NCBI GenBank assembly: GCA_001275005.1
Contig: JWZX01003320.1
Coordinates: 54,764 to 74,763 of the forward strand
Origin: Chrysochromulina tobinii
Lineage: Eukaryota
Length of the DNA: 20,000 nt
Reading direction: 5' to 3'
Part shown: one piece after another, positions 413 to 16,437 of the stretch
How positions within the stretch are numbered: position 1 is the first letter of the stretch
Layout: every line of letters begins with the position of its first letter
The notes under the pieces: generated by a model
The model's input: the letters and a program-made list of their open reading frames with translations, nothing else
The model's database searches: none
What the model was told of the DNA's origin: nothing
Translations under genes and position numbers: made by a program

Positions 413-3400
413 ATGAGCATGTTCTCGCTGAGCATGCTCTCGAATCGCGGCCGTCCGAGCTCTTCGGACGCCGCCGAGATCGCAGGCTTGCCGTTCGCAG
501 CGGCCCTCAACGTCAGCCCCGGCGTGCCGTCCTCGTCGAAGCAACGTGCGCGAGCGTCCAGCCCTCCTAAGCCGCCGCCCGTCGCAGTAGCCAGCCCACC
601 GCGGCCGTCGACGCCGGACCAGCCGAGCCCGGCGGAGGCCTTCGCGAAGAAGTGGGAGGTGGAGCAGACCAAGAAGCAGATGCTTCTCGACGAGCTCGAG
701 CTGGTGCGCGCGCAAGTCTCCGAGTTGCTCGAAGACCAGCGGCGCAGCGAGCATCTGAATGCGACGCCGTCCGAGCACATCGTGCTGTCCGCTCACCACG
801 CCGGCGAGGCGCTCGCGCGCAGCCTCGCATGGTGCTGCGAATGGATGAGCGCCGTCCTCCGCGGATGCGTGGCCGGTGCCGCCGGCAGCCGCAGCCGGGC
901 GGCCCGCCCTCTCCATGCGCTGCCTCGCGATGACGAGGAGGACTCGGTGGCGGGGCGGGCGAGCTCGCTGCTGGGCGAGGAGGGCGCGAACGACACGCAC
1001 CTCGCCCGCAAGATGCGTCGGAGCGCGCCGGCGCGGGGCCTGGTGACGAAACCCGAGATTGCGTCCAAGGGCGGCGTGACGAAACCCGAGAGCGCATCCA
1101 AGGGCGGTGTGACGAAACCGAGCCCGAAGGGCGATCCGAAGCATGCGAGAGTTCCCGAGGATAACCCCGAGCTCGTGGCGGCGATGGGGCGTTGGTGCGC
1201 AGGCCACGTGTCCAAGCAGGTGCGTGCGATCTCGCTGCGATCTCGCTGCGATCTCGACACGATTGCAAAACCTCGACACGCCTCGACTCGCCTCTGCATG
1301 CCTCGAGTTACCTCGACTTGCCTCGAATGGCCTCGAATGGCCTCGAGTTGCCTCGCAGGCGTGGGATTTGAGCATGCCACTGATTGCATGCTGATTGCAT
1401 GCTGATTGCATGCGGATTGCATGCTGATTGCATGCTGATTGCATGCTGATTGCATGTCGCAGGCGTGGGATCTGAGCATGCTCGTCCTCATCATCTACTC
1501 TTGCGTCGTGATTCCCTTCCGGATCGGCATGTCAGTACCGAACCCGACGGGCGTCAGCCAGGTGCGATCTGGCCCGAGATTGCGATCTGGCCCGAGATTG
1601 CACCTCTGATCGCACCTCCTTGCACCTCCTTGCGCCCGATGGTCCTCTCTGTGTGTGTGCCACGTGGCTTGCCATGTGACCCAAGTGACACGCGTGCCCC
1701 TCTGCAGACGATCGAGCGTTGCATCACGCTCCTATGATTGCCTCTGATGACCTCTGATGACCTCTGATTGCCTCTGATGACCGCTGATTGCCTCTGCAGA
1801 CGATCGAGCGGTGCATCACGCTCCTCTTCATCGTCGACCTGTGCCTCAACTTCAACACCGCCTACCTCGACGGATCGCACTTCATCGTCGACCGGTCCCT
1901 GATCGCGCGTAACTACCTCATGGGATGGTTCTGGATCGATCTCGCCTCTTCGATCCCCTTCGAGGACCTTCTACACCTCTTAGTGCTCCTCACCGGCAAC
2001 GAGGAGGCGTTCTCCGGTCAGCCAGATTGCTCTCAGCCTGCTCTGATGACCTCTGATGACCTCTGATGACCTCTTTTGACCTCTGTTGACCTCTGATGAC
2101 CTCTGAGTGCCCTCTGAGTGCCCTCAGAATCCTCTGAGTGGGACCGATGCCCCTTCCTTATTAGGCAACCCGGCGGCCCTCAAACTCCTTCGTGGCCTAC
2201 GCCTTGTGCGACTGCTGCGACTGCTCAAGCTGCTCAAGCTGCAGCAGCACATCGATACACTCGAGGACTATCTCGAGGTTGACCTCGGCTTCTTACAGGT
2301 GCCACTGATTGCCACTGATGGCCACTGATTGCCACTCGAGGACTATCTCGAGGTTGACCTCGGCTTCTTACAGGTGCCACTGATTGCCACTGATTGCCAC
2401 TGATTGCCCCTCGAGGACTATCTCGAGGTTGACCTCGGCTTCTTACAGGTGCCACTGATTGCCACTGATTGCCCCTCGAGGACTATCTCGAGGTTGACCT
2501 CGGCTCCTTACAGGTGCCACTGATTGCCACTGATTGCCACTTGATTGCCACTTGTTTGCACCTCGATGACATCTGAGTGCGCCCGAGTGCATCTAAGTAC
2601 GCCTGAGTGCATCTGAGTGCGCCTGCTAGCACCCCTCGATTGCATGCGCATGCAGATCCTCAAGATCGTCACTGATTGCCACTGATTGCATGCGCGTGCA
2701 GATCCTCAAGATGGTCACTGATTGCCACTGATTGCCACTGATTGCATGCGCGTGCAGATCCTCAAGATGGTCGCTATGATCCTCTACCTGATGCATATCC
2801 TCGGCTGCTTTTGGTTCTTCGTCGCGACCAACTCGGGCTATGAGGGCACGCTCGAGGCCGGTGACACGTGGCTCGCGAGGTACCACTGATTGCAACTGAT
2901 TGCCACTTGAGTGCACTGATTGCCACTCGATGCCGGTGACACGTGGCTCGCGAGGTACGATGGCGGCTCAGGGCTCACCATCCCCCTCGGCATGCAAGTG
3001 CTCACCACGACGCCCGGACTCCCCACAGGTACGATGGCGGCTCAGGGCTCACCGCCCCTCTCGAGACCCAGTACCTCTTCTCCATCTACTGGGCGCTGAT
3101 GACGCTCACCACCGTCGGCTACGGCGACATCACACCCGCCAACGACTCCGAGCGCCTGTAATCACTGATTGCCACTGATTGCCTCATGAGCGCCTGTAAT
3201 CACACCCGCCAACGACTCCGAGCGCCTGTAATCACTGATTGCCACTGATTGCCTCATGAGCGCCTGTAATCACACCCGCCAACGACTCCGAACGCCTGTG
3301 CGCTTCCCGCGCTCTGCCCTCGAGATCGCCTCCTGATCGCATCGAGATCGCATCGAGATCGCATCGTGATTGCATCGAGATCGCATCGAGATCGCATCGT

Positions 3401-5848
3401 GATCGCATCGTGATTGCATCGAGATTGCCTCATGGTGTCCCCCTTGCGCGCTCGGCTCCCTGCTGCTCGGCGCGCTCGGCCTCGGCATGCAAGTGCTCAC
3501 CACGACGCCCCCCCCTCTTCCCCACAGGTACGCGCTCGGCTCCCTGCTGCTCGGCGCGCTCGTCTTCGGCTTCATGCTCTCGTCGATCGGCGGCTTAGTC
3601 AAGGGCCTCGATAAGGAGAATATCCGGCTGCAGCACAAGATGGATGAGGTCAAGGAGTTCACCAGATGGCATAAGATGCCTAGTGACCTCTCCTCGCGCG
3701 TGCGCAAGTAGGAGGATTGCTGATGACCTCTAATGACCACTGATGACCTCTGATGACCTCTGATGACCGCTGATGACCTCTGATTGCCTCCCTCATCAAG
3801 CACGCTTGGCTCGGGCGGGGCCACGAATGACCACAGAGTGCACCTCCGACGACCTCTTGAGTGCTTCCGTTGGCCCCCTCCTCCTCCCCAGGTACTACGA
3901 GTTCTATTACCACTGATGACCACTGATGACCTCTGATGACGTCTGATTACCTCCCTCCTCAGGTACTACGAGTTCTACTACCAGAAGCTCTCCTCGTTGC
4001 CCGAGGAGGTGATCCTAGCGCGCGCGCCCAGCTCGCCCTCGGCATGCAAGTGCTCACCACGACGCCCCCCCACCACCCTCTTCCCCACAGGTGATCCTAG
4101 CCGACATGTCGCCCGAGCTCAAGGCATGCAAGTGCTCACCACGGCGCCCCCTCACCCTCTTCCCCACAGGTGATCCTAGCCGACATGTCGCCCGAGCTCA
4201 AGGCCGACGTCATGGCACACCTGCTCGCGCGCTCGGTCAGCCAGATCCCTTTCTTTTACGTGCCCGTGCTCGGCGCGAGCGAGCCCGCGCCGCCCGACAC
4301 GGCGTTCCAAATGGCCATCTACCCGCTCTTGAAGCCCGTCGTGCGCGAGGCGAAGGAGATCATCATCTCGCGCGGAGATGCACTCTCCGACCTGACCTTC
4401 GTGCACAAGGGCACGGTGCATGCCTACGGCCTCTGGAACGCCGCACGCCAGCTACGGCCACCCCATATTAGGCAACCCGAGTGGGCAGGCGGCCATCCCA
4501 TCTTAGGCAGCGGGTCGGCGCTCAGGACGACGCGGCGTGTCATCGGCCCGCGGACCGCGCGGGTGCTCGCCGACGAGGAGGAGCTCGCGCTCAGGACGGC
4601 GCCCAGCTTCGGCCGGCCGTTGCTGACGCTGGCCGAAACGGGCGCGCTGCTGAGCGAGGGCGCGCTCACGGAGACGCCGACGAAGATGGCGTACATGGCG
4701 GTGCTGCGGACCGAACTGGTGCTGATGGCGCGGTCAGACCTGCTCAAAGTCCTGGACGACTTCCCACACGCGCGTTATGAGATTGGAGCCTTCATCAAGG
4801 CGGAGATGCTCGAGCGCCTCAAGATGACCTACTTCTCCCTCCGCTTCCAGGTGACGAACCCGTGCTGATGGAGCCCTGATTGCGGTGACGAACCTTTGCG
4901 TGGAGCCCTGATTGCGGTGACGAACCTTCGCGCGGAGCCTGGATGAAGCCTTTGGTTGGCCAACGGCCCGATTGCCCCACTCATCACCTCTGATGACGAC
5001 CTCTGATGATGACGATGATGACCTCTGATTGCCCCCCCCCCCCTAAACAGGTGCGCGAGGCGTACGTCATCTGTGACGAGGAGGTCCGCGCGGTCCGCCT
5101 CGCGTACCGCGAGAACAGCTCCAATTACGTCGCCAGCTTCAACCTCCTCCAGATGGGCGCCTTGCGTCTCCAGATGGGATGGCTCAAACGGCAGATCCAG
5201 AAGCTGGCGTCCACGCCCGCGACGGCGCTCGTCCCGTGCATCTATGGAGCGCCGCCGCGGGCGCCGCCTGCTCCTGCGGCGCATCGGCCGCGCACGCCGA
5301 CGAAGCTCACCATCGAAGCTCTGGACCGCCTAGTGGGGAGTGGAATGGGCGTCATGTTGGGCGTCGCTCCCTTTGGTGGCGCCATGTTGGGCATCGCTCC
5401 CTTTGGTGGCGCGCTCCTCCCGCGGATCCACTCGCCACGCACTAGCCAAGCGGACGCGGCCGCTGCGCTGTCTGCAACGGACCGAGGGCGCATCGACGAG
5501 ATGACGAAACTCGCGGGCAGCGGCAGCGGCAGCGGCAGCGCGCGCCAACTGGTCGGGAGCGCGAGGTCGCAATCTGGGAGCGCGAGGTCGCTATCTGGGA
5601 GCGCGAGGTCGTACTCTGCGCGGGCGGCGGTGCGCGATCTCTCCGTGCGAGATCGCAGCCCGGCGCGCCTGCAGAGGGTCGACGAGGAGGAGGCGGCCCT
5701 CGAGCGCAGCGCCGTCCCGGGCGGTGCTGGGGCCGTCGCCGCCTCCTCGGAGGCGCTACACGGCTTGCGACAGGTCGAGGCCAAGCTAGGAGACGACGAG
5801 GCTCGCCTCGCTCTCTTGAACGAGAAGCTCGCGTCCCTGCTCCGGTAG
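413..5848 (+). CDS. voltage-gated K+ channel of the CNBD superfamily (KCNH/HCN/CNG-like), 10 exons, about 1070 aa
   Basis: Exons 413-1219, 1463-1561, 1800-2016, 2165-2298, 2758-2879, 3029-3157, 3528-3707, 3963-4008, 4170-4850, 5051-5848; all introns GT-AG, phases consistent, 3213 nt in total. Product has S1 (AWDLSMLVLIIYSCVVIPFRIG), S2 (FIVDLCLNFNTAY), S3 (YLMGWFWIDLASSIPFE), S4 (LLRGLRLVRLLRLLKLLK), S5 (MHILGCFWF), pore YWALMTLTTVGYGDITP, S6, C-linker (LSSRVRKYYEFYY...ILADMSPELKADV), a CNBD-like domain (LTFVHKGTV) and a C-terminal coiled coil. Confidence 0.93.
1378..1456 (+). repeat. intronic minisatellite (CTGATTGCATG)n
   Basis: About 7 tandem 11-mers between two copies of the exon-2 acceptor/start. 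Confidence 0.9.
2042..2140 (+). repeat. intronic minisatellite (CTCTGATGAC)n grading into (CTCTGAGTGCC)n
   Basis: Tandem 10/11-mers in intron 3; the same 10-mer family recurs at about 1735-1797, 3720-3790, 3911-3950 and 4987-5031. Confidence 0.9.
2260..2550 (+). repeat. 4x tandem copy of the exon-4 3' end plus donor plus (CACTGATTGC)n
   Basis: Unit CTCGAGGACTATCTCGAGGTTGACCTCGGCTTCTTACAG|GTGCCACTGATTGCC starts at 2260, 2335, 2410 and 2475 (periods 75, 75, 65). Confidence 0.95.
3129..3299 (+). repeat. 3x copy of the exon-6 3' end and donor (70-bp period)
   Basis: ATCACACCCGCCAACGACTCCGA(G/A)CGCCTGT at 3129, 3199 and 3269. Confidence 0.92.
3335..3428 (+). repeat. intronic minisatellite (GATCGCATCGA)n
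   Basis: About 8 degenerate 11-mers in intron 6. Confidence 0.85.
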
Positions 5849-6319
5849 CGCGCCGTCGTGGGCGCACCTGCCCCTTTTGCTCGCCGCAGGGCGTCGGAAC
5901 ACGTGGCAACACTGCCGGTCCGATCGTGCAACACTGCCAGTGTTGCCAGTGTTGCACGACGTCCGATCGGATCTGGCAACACTGCCGGTCCGATCGTGCT
6001 TTCGGGAGGGTGGCCCGCCCGCCCGCCCCTTTTCAGAACGCCACCTCTACCGTCCGTGCTGTGACACCTCTGCCATGTGGGTTCGGGATCTGCAGGATCG
6101 ATTGTGTGTTATAGGGTTAGGGCTTAGGGACCCGCGCACGTGATCGTGTAAGACCTGCTCACGTGATCAGCTGATGATATGTGCAATTCCAACTCGTTTC
6201 TCAGGACGGGAGGCAGGTGCGGCCGAGCTCAGAGCTTCCCAGATCCCAGGACGGAGCGCTACGTAAGCAGCAGTAAGGGACGTCGAGATACTAAGGCGGT
6301 CTCCGCTCTAGCTCGTACG
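5751..6319 (+). repeat. copy 1 of a local segmental duplication (channel C-terminus plus 3' flank)
   Basis: Aligns by eye with 7105-7712 from AGGCGCTACACGGCTTG to CTAGCTCGTACG, with small indels. Confidence 0.93.
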
Positions 6320-7104: not shown

Positions 7105-7712
7105 AGGCGCTACACGGCTTGCGACAGGTCGAGGCCAAGCTAGGAGACGAGGAGGCTCGCCTCGCTCTCTTGAACGAGAAGCTCGCGTCCCTGCTCGACC
7201 GGTATTACTCCGGTAGCGCGCCGTCGTGGGCGCACCAGCCCCTTTTGCTCACCGCAGGGCGTCGGACCTGGCAACACTGCCTAAACACTGCCGGTCCGAT
7301 CGTGCAACGCTGCCAGTGTTGCAGTGTTGCACGACGTCCGAGCGGATCTGGCAACACTGCTGGGTGCTGGTCCGATCGTGCGCCGTGCTTTCGGGAGGGT
7401 GGCCCGCCCGCCCGCCCCTTTTCAGAACGCCACCTCTACCGTCCGTGCTGTGACACTTCTGCCATGTGGGTTCGGGATCTGCAGGATCGATTGTGTGTTA
7501 TAGGGTTAGGGCTTAGGGACCCGCGCACGTGATCGTGTAAGACCCGCTCACGTGATCAGCTAATGATACATGTACATGTATGTGCAATTCCAACTCGTTT
7601 CTCAGGACGGGAGGCAGGTGCGGCCGAGCTCAGAGCTTCCCAGATCCCAGGACGGAGCGCGCTGCGTAAGCAGTAAGGGACGACATAGGCGGTCTCCGCT
7701 CTAGCTCGTACG
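7105..7712 (+). repeat. copy 2 of the segmental duplication (fragment of the channel 3' end)
   Basis: Re-encodes ALHGLRQVEAKLGDEEARLALLNEKLASLL; an insertion near 7197-7212 shifts the original TAG out of frame. Confidence 0.93.
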
Positions 7713-8206
7713 GGGTATTCGGTTGCGCTGGTTTAGGTACTTGTGAGGTCAAGGGTGTGAGGTACTTGTGTGTTTCGACTAATTAGCTTGCTTGCTTGCC
7801 GCGCGCGCCTTCATTTCGCCGACCGCCTTCGAGCAGGCGCGGGGAGGCGCTCTGGGAGCGGGTGAAGGCAGGGTCGGGTTCGCTGGGGGCGGCCTCTTCT
7901 GAGTCGGCCGCGGGGAGCGGTCGGCTCCGGGCCTGCGGCTGTTGAGTCGGCCGCGGTTTCGGTCGTCGCGCTGACGTGCGGGTTGTGTGTTGTTGGTGGG
8001 TTTGGATGGTTGTGAGGTTCGTCTGTGTGGTCCGTGTGCCTTTGTGCGCCCGCGTGCCCCGTGTGCCCGTGTGTGTGTCCCGGCTCCCCCCGTTGTCTTT
8101 TTACCGGTACCGGTGCAGTTCCGGTCCGGTTTTGAAACCAATGCTCGCACGGCCTCCCATTACGCACAAGAATGGGGGATCACTCCTTGGGGGCGTCAAA
8201 CACGGC

Positions 8207-11200
8207 ATGGTCTTGCCCACGTTCTTGGCGTTGATGAGCGTGCCCGACCCACTGATGAGCGTGGCTCCACCGCCCCCGTTCATCATCGAGCCCATGCTGC
8301 CGCCGCGCGCAAAGCCCCCCAAGCTGGCCCCCACATCCCACGAGTGGGCCGTCCAGGCGGGCGGTGGATCGAGTGAGGCCGCAGGCCGCGCAATTGCGAC
8401 CGATGGCGCAGGAGGGGCACTCGTGACCGGTCACTTCACGACTGCAGGTTTATTCGGCTCCAAGTCGCTCCTAAGCCGCGGCGGGGAAGACGCTTTCGTG
8501 ATGCACGTGACGGCGTCAGGGGACATCGACTGGGCCGTCCAGGCAGGTGGCACGGGTATCAATGACGAAGCGCGCAGCTCGGGCATCGCGCACGATGGCG
8601 CGGGGGGCGCTTTCGTGACGGGAGTTTTCAGTGGCACGGCATCGTTCGGCGATACGTCACTCACAAGCCGCGGCTCTTTCGACGCTTTCGTGCTCCACGT
8701 GACGGCGTCGGGGCTCATCGACTGGGCCGTCCAGGCGGGAGGCGCGTCCTACGACCAAGGCTTCGGCATCGCGCACGATGGCACGAACGGTGGTGCTTTC
8801 GTGACGGGCACCTTCGCTGGCGAAGCGCACTTCGGCTCGTACGCCGTGACAAGCCGCGGCGTGTACGCCGTATTTGTGATGCACGTGACGGCGTCGGGCG
8901 TCATCGACTGGGTCGTCCAGGCGGGCGGCAAGGGCACTGATAATGTAGGCCGCGGCATCGCACACGACGGCTCAGGGGGTGCTCTTGTGACGGGTACATT
9001 CGATGGCAGCGCTTCACAACCATGCTTCTCCTCGACTTCATCAGCATGCCATGCATGGTTCGGCTCGACCACGCTCACAACCCATGGCGATCTCGACACC
9101 TTTGTGATGCACGTGACGGCGTCGGGGGCCATCGACTGGGCCGTCACGGCGGGTACCTCGGCCCTTGATTGGGAGTGCATTTTCTGCGAAGTTTATGTCC
9201 TTGGCGTAGGCATCGCGCACGATGGCGCGGGGGGTGCTCTCGTGACGGGCGCATTCAAGGGTGAGGCATTCTTCGGTTCGAAATCGCTTAAAAGCCGCGG
9301 CATATACGACGACGTTTTCGTGATGCACGTGACGGCGTCGGGGGCCGTCGACTGGGCCGTCCAGGCGGGCGGCGCGTCCTACGACCAAGGCAACGGCATC
9401 GCGCACGATGGCGCGAACGGTGGTGCTTTCGTGACGGGGTGCTTCGCTGGCGAAGCACACTTCGGCTCGTACGCCGTGACAAGCCGCGGCGTGCACTCCG
9501 TATTTGTGATGCACGTGACGGCGTCGGGCGTCATCGACTGGGTCGTCCAGGCGGGCGGCATGGGCACTGATAACTTCGGTCGCGGCATCGCACACGATGG
9601 CTCGGGGGGTGCTCTCGTGACGGGTACCTTCGATGGCAGCGCTTCACAACCATGCTTCTCCTCGACTTCATCAGCATGCCAAGCATGGTTCGGCTCGACC
9701 ACGCTCGCAACCCATGGCGATCTCGACACCTTTGTGATGCACGTGACGGCGTCGGGGGTCATCGACTGGGCCGTCACGGCGGGTACCTCGACCCTTGATT
9801 GGGAGTGCATTCTCTGCGAAGTTTATGTCCTTGGCGTAGGCATCGCGCACGATGGCGCGGGGGGTGCTCTCGTGACGGGCGCATTCAAGGGCGAGGCATT
9901 CTTCGGTTCGAAATCACTCAAAAGCCGCGGCGGCATATACGACGACGTCTTCGTGATGCACGTGACGGCGTCGGGGGCCATCGACTGGGCCGTCCAGGCG
10001 GGCGGCGCGTCCTACGACCAAGGCAACGGCATCGCGCACGACGGCGCGGGCGGTGCTTTCGTGACGGGTGATTTCATGGGCGAAGCATCGTTCGGCTCGA
10101 TGTCGCTCGTAAGCCTCGGCGGTTCCGACGCTTTCGTGATGCACGTGACATCCTCGGGGGCCATCGATTGGGCCGTCCAGCTGGGTGGTGCGGCCGTCGC
10201 ACCTCCCTTCGACGTAGCATATGGCATCGCGTACGATGACACGCTCGAAGCAGGTGCTCTCGTGACGGGCGCTTTCAGGGGCGAGGCATCGTTCGGCTCG
10301 AACTCACTTGCAAACCGTGGCGCTGCTGCTTCTTGCTTTGTTGCGTCTCTAGAGCCGCCGCCCCCAGAGGAGCCTCCACTGGCTACGACATGCAACGGTG
10401 GATTCGTCTCGAGTCGAGTCGAGTCGCTCGCTTTGGGTCGAGTGGTTTGCAATGCTGAGCCGGGGTCTCGATCTTGGACCCCCGGGGGTGGCCAGGAGGC
10501 ATGTGAGGCGAGGGGCTGCTGCTGGGTGCCAGTGCAGATGGGCGATCCACCGGGGACCCCGGGGTGCTTCTACCTGGTCGCACCGTCGCCCCCACCGACA
10601 CGGCCACAAGAAGAGGTGCCCTCTGATGTGGTGTCCTCCAATTGGGCCGTCGAGGTGGAAGGCACCGCTTCCTCTTCAGGCAACGGCATCGCGCACGACG
10701 GCGCGGGGGGCGCTTTCGTGACGGGAGTTTTCAGTGGCACGGCATCGTTTGGCGATACGTCACTCACAAGCCGCGGCTCTTTCGACGTTTTCGTGCTCCA
10801 CGTGACGGCGTCGGGGCTCATCGACTGGGCCGTCCAGGCGGGAGGCGCGTCCTACGACTACGACCAAGGCTACGGCATCGCACACGATGGCGCGAACGGT
10901 GGTGCTTTCGTGACGGGTACCTTCGCTGGCGAAGCGCACTTCGGCTCGTACGCCGTGACAAGCCGCGGCGTGTACGCCCGTATTTGTGATGCACGTGACG
11001 GCGTCGGGCGTCATCGACTGGGTCGTCCAAGCGGGCGGCATGGGCACTGATAATGTAGGCCGCGGCATCGCACACGACGGCTCGGGGGGTGCTCTCGTGA
11101 CGGGTACCTTCGATGGCAACGGTGACGAAGCATGGTTCGGCTCGATACCGCTCACATGCCGCGGCCGCTCGAACGACGCTTTCGTGATGCACGTGACGGC

Positions 11201-13254
11201 GTCGGGGGTCATCGACTGGGTCGTCCAGGCGGGCGCCGTGGCCCCGGGTCCAGCATACAGTTCCACTTATGTCGGAGGCCAAGGCCTCGCGCACGATGGC
11301 GCGGGGGGTGCTCTCGTGACGGGCGTGTTCAAGGGCGAAGCATTCTTCGGCTCGACGTATGAATGGAACGGAACACACTCTAAACCAGTTGCTGGATCAA
11401 GACTCAAGAGCCACAGCCAGTACGACTCCGATATGTTCGTCATGCACGTGACGGCGTTGGGGGCCGTCGATTGGGTCGTCCAGGCGGGCGGGTGGGGGTC
11501 AACCCATGGTTCCAACATCGCGCATGATGGCGTCGGCGGTGCTTTCGTGACGGGCGACTTCATGGGCACCGCATCGTTCGGCTCGACGTCGATAGTGAAC
11601 CTCGGCGGCTCCAACACGTTCGTAATGCACGTGACGGCGTCGGGCATCATTGACTGGGCCGTCCGGGCGGGCAGCTCGGATGCGGGGGATCAGGCTTTCG
11701 GATACGAGGGCTCAGGCCGTGGCATCGCATACGATGGCACGGGAGGTGCTTTCGTGACGGGTCATTTTAGGGGCGAGGCATTGTTCGGCTCGACGTCGTT
11801 TGTGAGTCGCGACAGTGACGATGCTTCCTCGTACGCGATGCACGTGACGGCGTCGGGCGTCATCGACTGGGCCTTGCAGCTGGGCGGCGCGGCAGATGAC
11901 ATTGGCCTCAGCATTGCGAGCGACGGCGCGGGGGGTGTTCTTGTGACGGGCCATTTCACAGGCGAAGGAACGTTCGGCTCGAAGACACTTTCAAACCGTG
12001 GGGGGCTCACGGCCTGCTTTGTGGTTTCTCTCGTGCCGACGCTACGTCCACCGGTGCCTGCTCGTCGATTGCCACCTCCCGCGCTGGCTGTCCAGGAAGT
12101 CAGCTCTGGCGTTAGCATCCTACTGGTTGGCGCCGCGCTCGCCTTCACGGCCGCGGTCCTCTTCGCACTCATGCTCTGGTGAGCCCCGCAGCGTCCTTGA
12201 AGCAGAATGACCACGCTTCCTTGGCTGCACTGACCAATTGTGTTTGTCTGTTGGGCGTGCGCACAGGAACGCGCGCCGGCGCAACGCGCAGCTCGCGAGG
12301 GAGAAGGAGCGGCTCACGTACGAGCGCACGTTTGCCCTCCATGCGCTTCACTTCCAGCGCCCTCCTCTCCCCTTCGACGCACAATACAGTGATCACGTCT
12401 CCCACTACTCGAGCCCAGATCACATAGACCACCCGGGACCGATGGCACCGGCCGCCTTCGCTCCGGCCGCCTCCGCTCCGGCCGCCTCCGCTCCGGCCGC
12501 TCGGGCTGCAGGGGCGCCGGCTGGGGATGAGGCGTTCGAGGTCGAGATGTTGCCGATCGGCGAGCCATGCGACACCGCAGGCCGCGTCAGCAGCCCTTGG
12601 CGTCTGATCTTCCCTTCCCGAGTCAAAGCGTCGAGAGTCGAGGGGGGCTTTCTGGACAGTGCAGCCCTCTTGGCCGCTGCGGGGGGCGCTGTGCCGCCCT
12701 CCATCCAAAGCTTGCCGGCCGTTGTCACCGTAGCAGGGCCGCCAGTGCCTTCGTGCGCCGCGGCATCACCCTCGCGGGCTGTAGCGGCATCACCCTCGCG
12801 GGCCGCGGCACTCTCAACTATGGACCGCCTGGATCACATCATAGCGCAGCCTGGCAATCGGCACGGGTCTCGGCATGGCTCTATCGGCGGCGGAAGCAGC
12901 TACGGCACGGAAAGTGAGTGTTCTAGGTACGCAGCTGCGATGGCGATGGCCAGCACAGCACAATCGCTGCCGCAGACACCGCCGCAGTCGCCGCCTCAGA
13001 CGCCGCTGCAGACGCCGCAGTCGCTCGCCCGGGCGGATGCCCTCGAGCGGACGCTGCGATTGTGCGGCTTATTGCCCGAGCCTAGTGCGGCGGAGGAAGC
13101 TTCGCTCCCTGAGGCGCTGGAGGGTCCGGCCTCTCCGAATGGCGACGACGGAGCGGCCTCCCCATGGCCTCCCTATGCCAGCCTGCCACGTGGCTTGACG
13201 GAGCGCGCGCGCCTCGCGGGCCTCGCGGGCCACTCGTTAGGCGCGGGCACCTGA
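8207..13254 (+). CDS. large single-pass membrane protein: 10 + 7 SBBP-like beta-propeller repeats, trefoil-like domain, TM helix, low-complexity cytoplasmic tail (about 1650 aa; contains a +1 frameshift)
   Basis: Joins ORFs 7976-11050, 10986-12182 and 12238-13254. Likely start ATG 8207 (GGCATGG, short hydrophobic MVLPTFLALMS; ATG 8141 is an alternative). Repeats of about 60-85 aa: WAVQAGG..GIAHDGAGGAxVTG.F.G.A.FG...DAFVMHVTASG.ID. CEARGCCW...PGCFY at about 10448-10573. Extra C at 10977-10979 versus the paralogous repeat at 8861-8880. TM ILLVGAALAFTAAVLFALML. The GTGAG..CACAG intron 12179-12266 (88 nt, CTGAC branch-like motif near 12230) restores W-NARRRNAQLAREKER in frame. Confidence 0.85.
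8696..9958 (+). repeat. intragenic tandem duplication of three propeller blades (630/633-bp period)
   Basis: Near-identical blocks start at 8696 and 9326, with a partial third at 9959; antisense shadow ORFs 8749-9180 and 9379-9810 are offset by exactly 630. Confidence 0.93.
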
Positions 13255-13469: not shown

Positions 13470-16437
13470 TTAATCTAGTTCTAGATCGGTGTCCCCTGGA
13501 GCCTGAACCATTCCGATGCCATTCTCTGAGTCATCTTCGTAGCAGAAGACTTGGCCTGCCTGGGCCCGTCCATGTTTGCCCGTGGCAGGTCGCGGGAGCA
13601 TATAGGCCACGAGCGAACGTGCCTTACGTCGTGCGGAAGAGGTCTCTGGCGAGGTGCCCTTGACACCCTCGATCAGCGTTAAGTGGACACTATCTCCGTT
13701 GTCGTCGTCGAGGTTGCAAGCGTCGACACCGGCTACACCGCGCGGCCCCGCGAGTGTTGCCTGGGGCTTCCCGGCATCTCGAGGCGGTCCCGCGGATGCC
13801 TCCATGAGCGGCGCCTCCCAACTGTAAGTCCTCTTGAGGATGCGTAAAGGGTACCAAGGGTCGATCACGGCGCCGACAGCGAGCAGCGCCCCGATCACGG
13901 CGCCGACAGCGAGCAGTGCCCGCGGCAGCGCCAACCTTCCGGGCAGTCGTGGAGGAGGAGTAGGAGGAGGCGTAGGAGGAGGCTCCGACAGCCGCGCGGC
14001 TGGCGCCCGCAGCACATGCTGCGGTGATTCCGGCGAGGGATATGCTGAGGGGGGCGGCGCCGACGGCGGCATCTGCCACGGGATCTCCGGTGTTGGGAGA
14101 GGTGGAGGTGGGGAGGGGTCGGGCAGCGGGGGGTGGGAGGGCGGCAACGGCTTCGGCTGTGACGGCAAGGAAGGCTCATCTGCCTTTACATCTGCCTGGC
14201 GGAAGGCCTTATGGGCGGCCCACACGGGCAGTGGCATATCAACGAGCCTCGCGAGAGCCTTCCAACGATCTGAACTACTCGGCTGCTCATCGGCGAGGAG
14301 GTTGTCGAGCAGCAGGTCTATTCACAGAAAGAGGCTCGAACGCGCAAGACAGAGAGGTGAGCGAGGACCAATAAGCGAGGACGCGCTGGAGGTGACACTG
14401 GCGGGGCACGTGCTCGCGCGGCCAGGCCAAGGCCAGGCCATGGCACAGATTCGCTGCAGGGTCATGGGCAGCTCGAGAACGGGTTCGAGACGCCTGCCGC
14501 AGGTTACGCGAGGGCGGCACGGTGCACATGGTTAGAGCCATCTCGGTCACATAGGACCACGCCGCCCCGAGGCCGTATTGCGACGCTGCCCAGCCCACGC
14601 TCGCAACGCTTGGCGACTGCACCGCCCGCCTCTCGAGCTGCTCGAGGCTCGCGCCGCCTGTGTCGATCGGATAGATCTGCGACAAGCTGCGCTCCGTCAT
14701 CCAATAAAACGGGGCGGCATGCACGCCGTGATGCTCTTGTGCGCGCTGCCGGTACCACTCGACGCTGTTCTGCACAGTGAGCACCACCCGGGCGTCCTCG
14801 TGCGCCGCATACAGGAACGGCAAGAGCTGCGCGATGGGCACGTCGGCGACCGCGTCGAGGTCCTTGAGCGCGCCACAGTAGTCAAAGGTGGCAAGCTCAG
14901 AAGGTTTGAGGGCCCAAATCGCCCTTCGGAAGCTCGTCCATGCGTGCTCTCGCCGGGTGCACTCAGCGATGCCCATGCTGTCCGGGCACAGGAACTCGTC
15001 CCAGTGGCCCACGGCCAGACCGAGCTGCTGTACCGCCCACGCATAGGTACCCGTGCCCGTCGCGCCCTGGCCAGCCAGCAGGACGAGCGGACGGCGGCGG
15101 CCGGCACATGAGGAGGCACCGGGCGTGGCCCCTGCCGCCAGGGGGGCAAGGTAGCGCAGCCAGGTGGCACCGGCTGCAAGCATAGTCGGGAGAGGCGGGT
15201 GCACCTTTTGGCCTCGGTCGGAGCGGTCGTGCGCCTGCCAAAACTCATTGTAGCTGAGCCAGAAGGAGACGCAATCGCCACTGGCATGCACATTTCTCGT
15301 GATGCACTCAGGCGGCGCTCCGCGGAAGGGGCGCGTGTCTGCCCACCTAGGCAGAGGCACGTCCGCCAGTTGCGCGAAGCGGCGCCAGCGCTCCGCATCC
15401 ATCTGACGGCGAACGACGTCTGCGTCGGTGCGGTGGTCCGAGAAGACATTGGTGATGATGAGCCGATCGGGCGGCACAAGGCACACGACTAAGGCGAGCT
15501 CTGCAAAGTAACTCCACGAGGCCGCCTTGATACCCATAACCTGCACGTTATGGCCGACGCTGCCTCTGCCGGCATACGTATCACTGATCGACGCGCCGCT
15601 GATCCAGAAGAAAGGTGCCATGTCCGTGCCGCCCTTCCACTGTACCCGTCGAGGGTACCACTCCTCACTTTTTCGAACAGTGAGCACCACCCGGGCGTCC
15701 TCGTGCGCCGCATACAGGAACGGCAAGAGCTGCGGGATGGGCACGTCGGCGATCGCGTCGAGGTCCTTGAGCGCGCCACAGTAGTCAAAGGTGGCAAGCT
15801 CAGACGGTTTGAGGGCCCAAATCGCCCTTCGGAAGCTCGTCCATGCGTGCTCGCGCCGGGTGCACTCAGCGATGCCCATGCTGTCCGGGCACAGGAACTC
15901 GTCCCAGTGGCCTGTAGCGAGCCCCAACTCCCGCGCAGCCCAGGCATACGTCGACGTTCCAGTCTTGCCATCACCCGCCATGATCAGCAGCGGGCGCGTA
16001 CGGCCGGGGCATGTCGACTTTGGTGGCGTGAGCTGATCGAGCAGCGTCGCGCAGGGCAGAGACGTGTTTGGCAGCCGAGGCGGCAGCGGGGGCAGTCCTG
16101 GTGCTGGTGGTGGCGACGACGGCGGGGGCAGTGATGGAAGGGGAAACGGTGACAGCGACGGCAGCAGCGACGGCTGTGCAATAGGAGATGCAGTGGATGC
16201 GGACGGCAAAGGAGATGAGGATGGAGAGGACGCAGGAGGGAAATGGAATGGCGGCGGTAATGTTGGTAGAGATCCGGTACTTGCTGACGGTTGACTGACG
16301 CTGCGTACCACCACCTCATAATAAAGGAGTGCTGATGCAAATCCCATGCTTACCGGCATCAGAAAGATGCAGAGCAGCAACGTGAGAGCTCGAATCAGGG
16401 TTCCTGGGTATGCTACGGTGGATGGACCGTGGCCCAT
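13470..16437 (-). CDS. membrane-anchored protein with two tandem P-loop sulfotransferase-like domains (Sulfotransfer_4-type), 2 exons, about 925 aa
   Basis: Exons 16437-14508 and 14317-13470, intron 14318-14507 (GTAACC..AATAG). Splicing yields VPPSHLLLDNLL..RWKALARLVDMPLPVWA, matching domain 1 VPPDRLIITNVF..RWRRFAQLADVPLPRWA. Motifs MAGDGKTGTSTYAWAARELG, DAIADVP, DARVVLTVRKSEEW. N-terminal hydrophobic anchor, Pro/Ser stems, second hydrophobic segment near the C-terminus. Start codon uncertain. Confidence 0.8.
14774..15912. repeat. near-identical 236-bp patch shared by the two sulfotransferase-like domains (14774-15009 and 15677-15912)
   Basis: 903-bp offset; 4 mismatches counted by eye. Confidence 0.92.

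Follow-up and report, generated by a model that had tools for sequence, protein, structure and literature searches.

How does an intron come to contain, within itself, the spliced junction of the two exons that it separates? The question is raised by the fifth intron of a potassium channel gene model in the stretch of 20,000 nucleotides analysed here (the window). The answer that we favour, with a probability of about 0.62, is that intron 5 arose at a site of continuous exon through two successive events, in each of which 25-33 nt were duplicated and half of another intron was inserted. The host gene and the parts of it that bear on this proposal are as follows.

413-5848, + strand: host gene, a cyclic-nucleotide-gated/KCNH-like K+ channel model of 1070 aa with nine introns, based on weak domain matches and homolog alignment
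1220-1462, 1562-1799, 2017-2164, 2299-2757 and 2880-3028, + strand: introns 1-5
3158-3527, 3708-3962, 4009-4169 and 4851-5050, + strand: introns 6-9
2758-2879, + strand: exon 5, whose final 29 nt (2851-2879) are the template of an internal copy in intron 5
3029-3157, + strand: exon 6, the pore-helix region with a TVGYGD motif, whose initial 25 nt are likewise the template of an internal copy
4009-4169, + strand: intron 8, with an older exon-start copy and cassette plus a second 82-nt round that is missing in the allele L056

The start codon of the model is assumed to be the first in-frame ATG, and the domain matches, to cNMP_binding and, on exon 3, to Ion_trans, are both weak. Protein P0001, which carries PF00520 and PF07885, is 47% identical to the model overall and colinear with it, and the protein alignment runs unbroken over the exon 5/6 junction. 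This protein and four further channel homologs (P0001-P0005) come from long open frames on contigs of 3-4.5 kb, and because these contigs may be transcripts the homologs were set aside as intron-less orthologs. Directly before intron 5, at 2836-2860, exon 5 has about six residues beyond P0001 and P0002, overlapping the start of the duplicated stretch.

Intron 5 itself divides into the following parts.

2880-3028, + strand: intron 5, 149 nt, phase 2, GT-AG, with halves of 75 and 74 nt joined at an internal AG|GT
2880-2925, + strand: outer donor GTAC (identical to the first 4 nt of exon 6) and a tract of 10/11-nt CACTGATTGC-type repeats
2926-2954, + strand: copy of the exon 5 end (2851-2879), identical at 28 of 29 nt, with AG at its end
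2955-2979, + strand: exact 25-nt copy of the exon 6 start (3029-3053), with GT at its start; putative original donor of the first-made intron
2980-3028, + strand: acceptor cassette ending CCCCACAG, with its core at 2990-3008, a branch-like CTCAC at 3001-3005 and CAG at 3026-3028

An earlier note on this DNA had described 2926-2979 as the uninterrupted exon 5-exon 6 junction with one mismatch, preceded by repeats and followed by an acceptor cassette, and each part of that description holds. The single mismatch, at 2931 (T for G), leaves 23 nt exact up to the junction, and the chance of finding 48 exact nt within a 149-nt intron is, as a rough figure, 1e-23. The note's estimates of about 33 and 27 bp for the two duplications are also borne out, as 29 + 4 and 2 + 25 nt, through the AG|GTAC that is common to both ends of the intron. 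Each of the two halves starts with GT, contains a branch-like motif and ends with AG; for the outer half we take this motif to be the CTGAT at 2916-2920, by its likeness to the general consensus. The reading frame stays open solely when all 149 nt are removed. Recursive (AG|GT ratchet) splice sites are internal AG|GT sites, and that layout, with two intron-sized units, is present in intron 5.

This layout is likely to be that of real DNA, with short-read support. In each of the DNA runs X1 and X3 a single contig spans 2743-3008 with no differing letter and no gap, at depths of 42 and 37.7, comparable with the ∼35-53 of neighbouring contigs, and another assembly (L122) is 100% identical to the window over 2689-4442, although all of these are short-read data and maybe from one strain. 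The exons of the channel gene are covered by contigs from RNA runs, several of which depart at predicted donors. One of these (X13, record 19) departs at 2877 with 27 letters remaining, reported by length only, and this length equals AG plus the 25 nt common to the internal copy and exon 6; use of the donor at 2880 is no more than hinted at by this contig. The search for an allele or ortholog over intron 5 returned nothing except identical copies, and a gain at intron 5 is therefore argued by analogy with other sites.

Such sites were sought with the 20-nt core of the cassette, which retrieved at least 122 metagenome stretches and one match in a viral collection (L001, uninformative, at a contig end), making 123 loci and 534 kb, about 419 kb of it non-redundant. 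The loci were picked by the cassette motif, and frequencies within them are not genome-wide rates. Many similar introns lie in them at unrelated positions, with 108 distinct canonical cassette acceptors in the 123 listed loci; intron 5, which failed the pyrimidine filter, is outside the 108. In 80 of the 108 the cassette comes directly after a copy of the intron's own downstream exon start, beyond the 99th percentile for 2087 shuffled pairings, and GT opens the exon after the acceptor in 95. The ungapped exon-start copies are 16-50 nt long, with a median of 25 (n = 75 of 159 sites; 16 nt was the search floor), and do not have the form of a short, family-specific target duplication of 3-9 nt.

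Both halves of intron 5 have counterparts that stand alone. The 67 testable cassette cases comprise 45 stand-alone elements, 11 compounds with a junction inside and 11 others. The 45 have no intron tract in the upstream 100 nt and are predicted to be complete introns of 60-91 nt made of copy and cassette only; GT is at the start in 40 of them, with AG before the GT in 15. An open frame is found in 39 of the 45 when the element is removed, compared with 31-32 for shifted cuts and 29 for the unspliced sequence, a weak test. In a mirror family the order is reversed: an element-type donor and tract come first, and after them stands a copy of the end of the upstream exon (above control in 15 of 22), and the element stands after AG in 20 of 22. 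In both forms, to judge from these sequence patterns, one splice site appears to have been recruited from the target duplication. At two places, L032 4971-5206 and L077 5755-5992 (both on the − strand, 0-based), three units are stacked at one site, two of them with element donors and the last an exon-start copy with a cassette; the downstream exon of L077 starts with GG, showing that GT is not needed for the final round. At L045 7357 and 9118 there are members that look full-length, having an element-type donor, a tract, a cassette and an acceptor; they are candidate parents of both half types. The cassette-bearing locus L076 encodes a conserved epimerase whose best species-named match is from Emiliania huxleyi (83%), with Diacronema lutheri at 78%. 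This points to a haptophyte affinity, which would extend to the window through the common intron family and overlapping assemblies. The Emiliania genome reportedly has 10-11-nt intron repeats, in agreement with the 10-nt intron repeats seen here.

The earlier note had proposed that introns be scanned for copies of their own exon junctions, and a model-free scan of the listed loci yields 21 junction-inside introns including intron 5. Inspection by eye retained 19 of 26 candidates, and two came in from the classification into stand-alone and compound cases; the seven dropped as repeat-tract or tandem artefacts are L006 (twice), L022-, L040, L043-, L053- and L109. The downstream exon starts with GT in 20 of the 21, whereas the upstream exon ends with AG in just eight, leaving 13 with no AG. 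In 12 of 21 the outer donor and the junction have at least 5 nt in common, where the rate among unrelated GT starts is 10.8% (p = 3e-7); donor and downstream exon have as many as 11 nt in common. The outer donor tracks the variant of the internal copy in three cases and that of the exon in one. Divergence from the exon is 3.2% for upstream copies (16 of 497 nt) and 6.4% for downstream copies (41 of 637 nt), a contrast in age that is inflated by some alignments running into the filler.

An upstream half without AG could never have been an intron alone, which makes it likely that in the AG-less compounds (13 of 21) the downstream half is the earlier one, with duplication of the donor region following. 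Intron 5 does carry AG at its internal junction, with 4 nt shared and with one mismatch in the upstream copy compared with none in the downstream copy. Because of that AG its own sequence does not fix the order of steps, and we infer from the analogy that its downstream half is likely to have come first as well. Taken together, donor sharing and copy ages suggest duplication of a young intron's donor region and not a cDNA patch, and the internal junction is likely to be the trapped original exon site.

Differences between alleles bear on whether such elements have been gained recently. Locus pairs were aligned, with four large pairs left out. An 80-nt element of L068 is missing in L073, which is 99.1% identical and reads as one open frame; the 30-nt exact copy in the element bears the L068 form of a SNP. 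Similarly, an 81-nt element of L017 is missing in L003/L009 (98.3%), and its cassette matches the L003 form of a neighbouring cassette intron ∼520 nt away in the same locus. The L017 element does not seem to sit at an existing donor, the next 330 nt in L003 having no intron tracts. These two differences suggest recent, precise gains, where gain is the presumed direction and the splicing of the inserts is predicted. The earlier note's picture of two duplicating insertions at an uninterrupted AG|GTAC thus survives in its main part, both halves existing as stand-alone elements and two elements of the exon-start copy and cassette kind being present in one allele and absent in another, but AG is not a requirement, preceding GT in only 15 of 45. 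The note's view of intron 5 as a snapshot of intron gain fares likewise: gain is supported, but the pattern is common in these loci and not a single case.

The channel gene has comparable variation of its own. Copies of flanking exon ends were found by sequence comparison in its introns 1, 2, 4, 6, 7 and 8 also, and the four tract motifs that were counted occur in the gene in a sense-to-antisense ratio of 56:0. The allele L056 (∼98% identical in aligned columns), which ends short of intron 5, is without a 71-nt unit of intron 7 and without the 82-nt unit of intron 8, and the exon-7 copy in its intron 6 differs from that of the window. From these differences in introns 6, 7 and 8 it follows that splice-site duplication is ongoing. 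They also count against our model to some extent, in that extra exon-start copies evidently arise within existing introns.

Several further observations concern this gene and the rest of the window. In intron 6 (window 3420-3527; L056 1-110) the differing exon-7-start copies are about 35 and 52 nt long and meet the cassette at different short shared motifs. Intron 4 (2299-2757) holds three 65-75-nt rounds of exon-4 end, donor and tract, and its 3′ part has two copies of acceptor and exon-5 start, with one 56-nt unit absent from an X13 RNA contig. An intron-like stretch ending in TTAG, at ∼4427-4506, lies in frame within the exon 4170-4850. P0001 and P0002 have a gap here, L056 is shorter by 15 nt, and X11 and X13 RNA contigs read across the stretch unspliced; it is possibly an exonised or retained element. 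About 600 nt (5751-6319), which take in the final part of the channel gene together with its 3′ flank, recur with ∼88% identity at 7105-7712, 1.35 kb downstream. Outside this gene we noted by eye two regions:

∼8200-12180, + strand: long region, gene-like and seemingly without introns, composed of degenerate ∼160-nt repeats and with what looks like a frameshift near 10975
∼14600-16000, − strand: coding-like region, which we take by eye to be sulfotransferase-like, with two near-identical ∼330-nt segments

Where do the inserted halves come from? The nearest relative of the intron 5 cassette filler is an intron at L004 ∼4992-5040, identical at 47 of 49 nt and with 7 of the 8 nt to the left also in common. 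A local origin of this cassette was rejected, the best match being in L004. The tract of intron 5 matches intron 4 (2512-2559) with a score of 62, and generic tracts elsewhere reach 62-65, which makes intron 4 as its source a weak hint. More generally, the nearest cassette lies within the same locus in 11 of 58 cases, where 1.7 are expected, but many nearest relatives, like that of intron 5, are found at other loci. Over the 8 nt to the left of the filler, 17 pairs of daughter and nearest relative, which include reciprocal pairs and related subfamilies, match at 4.8 positions against 2.4 in controls. The filler of L084 contains 6 nt of the exon of L074 behind a 10-nt shared stretch, and tract-type acceptors without a cassette also act as fillers. 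Fillers thus look as if they were copied from other introns at points of microhomology. Similar neighbouring cassettes were not found to have more exon-start bases in common than others (3.11 versus 2.89 nt; p = 0.70 in the test at <1 kb), a result that might count against a DNA template switch at the 3′ junction.

In the two-step reading, the first step would have duplicated the 25 nt that begin with GT, and another intron's 3′ half, bringing a branch site, a pyrimidine tract and AG, would have been copied in between the duplicates. The first copy would then serve as donor and the filler as acceptor, and splicing would restore the exact mRNA. A second duplication would have covered the donor region just formed, 29 nt from exon 5 together with GTAC, with a 5′-type repeat tract as filler, shifting the working donor upstream and trapping the old exon junction inside. 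The likely engine would be repair of staggered breaks, in which a broken end may anneal to another intron, either its DNA or its RNA, through some 5-10 nt of microhomology, be copied to that intron's end and be rejoined upstream, with selection retaining the products that splice. The more general proposition, that introns multiply without a transposon through breaks mended by copying a 5′ or 3′ intron half between a 16-50-nt target duplication, we put forward tentatively and at somewhat less than even odds. If it is true, any intron could seed others, the template possibly being excised RNA, and repeated rounds would bury the original junction, leaving a layered and readable intron history.

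A rival reading keeps the same two steps but makes the fillers introners, non-autonomous transposons whose mobility comes from an element-encoded enzyme; one such route would be target-primed reverse transcription that truncates the 5′ end and leaves target-site duplications of unusual length. A conserved cassette recurring across many genes is what this would give, and the summed depth of the cassette in X1 (roughly 13,500, against ∼45 at single-copy places) agrees with it, as do a 3′ end fixed at AG, variable 5′ ends and duplications, and the sense orientation; the lack of extra sharing of parent exon starts is in keeping with priming on RNA whose end is AG. The elements, however, have no defined 5′ end, which varies and carries parent exon bases, and fillers bear pieces of the parent intron's own exon copy. 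Terminal inverted repeats are missing from the fillers, the longest match being ≤4 nt in 70 of 75, the cassette listings contain no poly(A) tail, and tract-type acceptors are used as fillers even where they have no cassette. Published introner duplications, moreover, are 3-9 nt in the portions of the reports available to us (PMC9860276; bioRxiv 10.1101/2020.10.14.339549). On balance we regard this enzyme-driven version as possible but improbable.

Three other readings would dispense with a stepwise gain. Intron 5 could be an older intron, both ends of which were tandemly duplicated before a deletion between two AGGTAC hexamers fused the copies. AGGTAC does occur at both its ends, and duplicated ends are common, and polymorphic, among introns already in place (introns 7 and 8, L014, L078, L027). 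Nevertheless, this reading requires three events at each of 21 sites, and it explains neither the stand-alone 60-91-nt elements of copy and cassette, nor the allele absences, nor donors that share up to 11 nt with the downstream exon; we consider it unlikely. The earlier note's alternative, an abortive intron loss in which cDNA or mRNA across the exon 5-exon 6 junction patched a break in an existing intron, would account for an internal 54 nt colinear with the predicted mRNA, and the gene is covered by RNA-run contigs. It gives no reason, however, for an outer donor that equals the exon start, nor for donors that track variants of the internal copy, and it predicts halves of equal age, whereas downstream copies look older on average; single halves are also far commoner than both together. 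The donor sharing, variant tracking and copy ages thus disfavour the patch, which seems to us very improbable. An assembly artefact, whether an mRNA-like chimera or misjoined repeats, might be suspected in a repeat-rich intron known from short reads only, but the unbroken, single-copy contigs of two DNA runs, the identical second assembly, exact repeats of <31 nt and the recurrence of the design at 20 other sites leave it scarcely credible.

How does the two-step gain that we prefer compare with known systems? The comparisons that follow concern the available portions of the cited sources. In the introners of Symbiodinium and Polarella (classes 4/5 and 6/8/10) the 5′ splice site derives from the target-site duplication (PMC9860276; bioRxiv 10.1101/2020.10.14.339549), and in an introner family of Chrysochromulina sp. 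the 3′ site has this origin (PMC9860276, Fig. 2C); a review likewise treats introners that take one splice site from the target duplication (PMC11282704), a similar way of working. As here, introners are similar short introns at unrelated sites, with one splice site carried and the other taken from duplicated exon, and they leave the mRNA unchanged. They differ in having duplications of 3-9 nt, fixed for each family, and often inverted repeats, although some published introners also have none. The present elements, in contrast, have variable duplications of 16-50 nt, no inverted repeats and one ragged end, pick up parent sequence, occur as 5′ and 3′ halves, and stack at one site.

The break-repair neointrons of Daphnia pulex (PMC4202315; PMC3443670) resemble the present case in their direct repeats at and inside new introns, in the repeated rounds that lengthen young introns and in presence or absence at the level of alleles, and the combination of target direct repeats at intron ends with internal repeats from later rounds is found here also. 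Their repeats are described as short, however, and nothing is said of their inserts being intron halves, whereas the insert here is a recognisable intron piece with branch site and acceptor, or with donor. Tandem AGGT duplication (PMC3443670; for potato, PMC4974935) similarly provides a splice site from duplicated exon that stays in the intron. It would take both sites from the duplicated AGGT, with an intron that consists of duplicated exon; here AG precedes GT in only 15 of 45, and the second site comes from foreign filler. The R-loop reverse-splicing model for Micromonas introner elements (PMC4540971) shares with our loci the coding-strand orientation, the lack of a known coding partner and the clustered insertions, but it inserts a whole intron cleanly, with neither 16-50-nt duplications nor half introns. 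Replitron-1 of Chlamydomonas (PMC10288648) has a target duplication of variable length and a fuzzy end that comes from the flank of the parent copy, as here, but is an element of 0.9-3.6 kb with terminal direct repeats and an HUH transposase, and is not described as intron-forming. Recursive sites and fungal stwintrons (PMC12403724) also comprise a pair of intron-sized units that two reactions could remove; unlike stwintrons, the units here are tandem and not nested, and in 13 of 21 compounds the exon does not end in AG.

A search by title and abstract start, with subscription papers and bioRxiv supplements outside its scope, found no description, for haptophytes, of duplications that are long and variable and that come with captured halves of introns. 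The design goes unmentioned in the available portions of PMC12130899, PMC4580454 and PMC12480563, and the cassette and tract motifs are absent from the part seen of one supplement to PMC9860276. We conclude that in kind this is intron gain by duplication-coupled insertion, and that the stacked form, the allele differences and the parent-daughter links are what is added.

The origin of new spliceosomal introns has long been an open question, and most gains have no traceable source, according to the accessible part of one account (PMC3443670). Here the source intron, the target, the junction microhomology and the intron-less alleles can all be read. For annotators there is a practical consequence, in that internal junction copies mis-place spliced reads and imitate cDNA insertion or assembly errors. 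The organism is present in mixed-culture runs, which makes the mechanism accessible to population sequencing and to mutation-accumulation tests. Finally, the evidence suggests that intron formation is still going on in this alga, through duplication of 16-50 bases of exon, with half of another intron taking the space between the copies.
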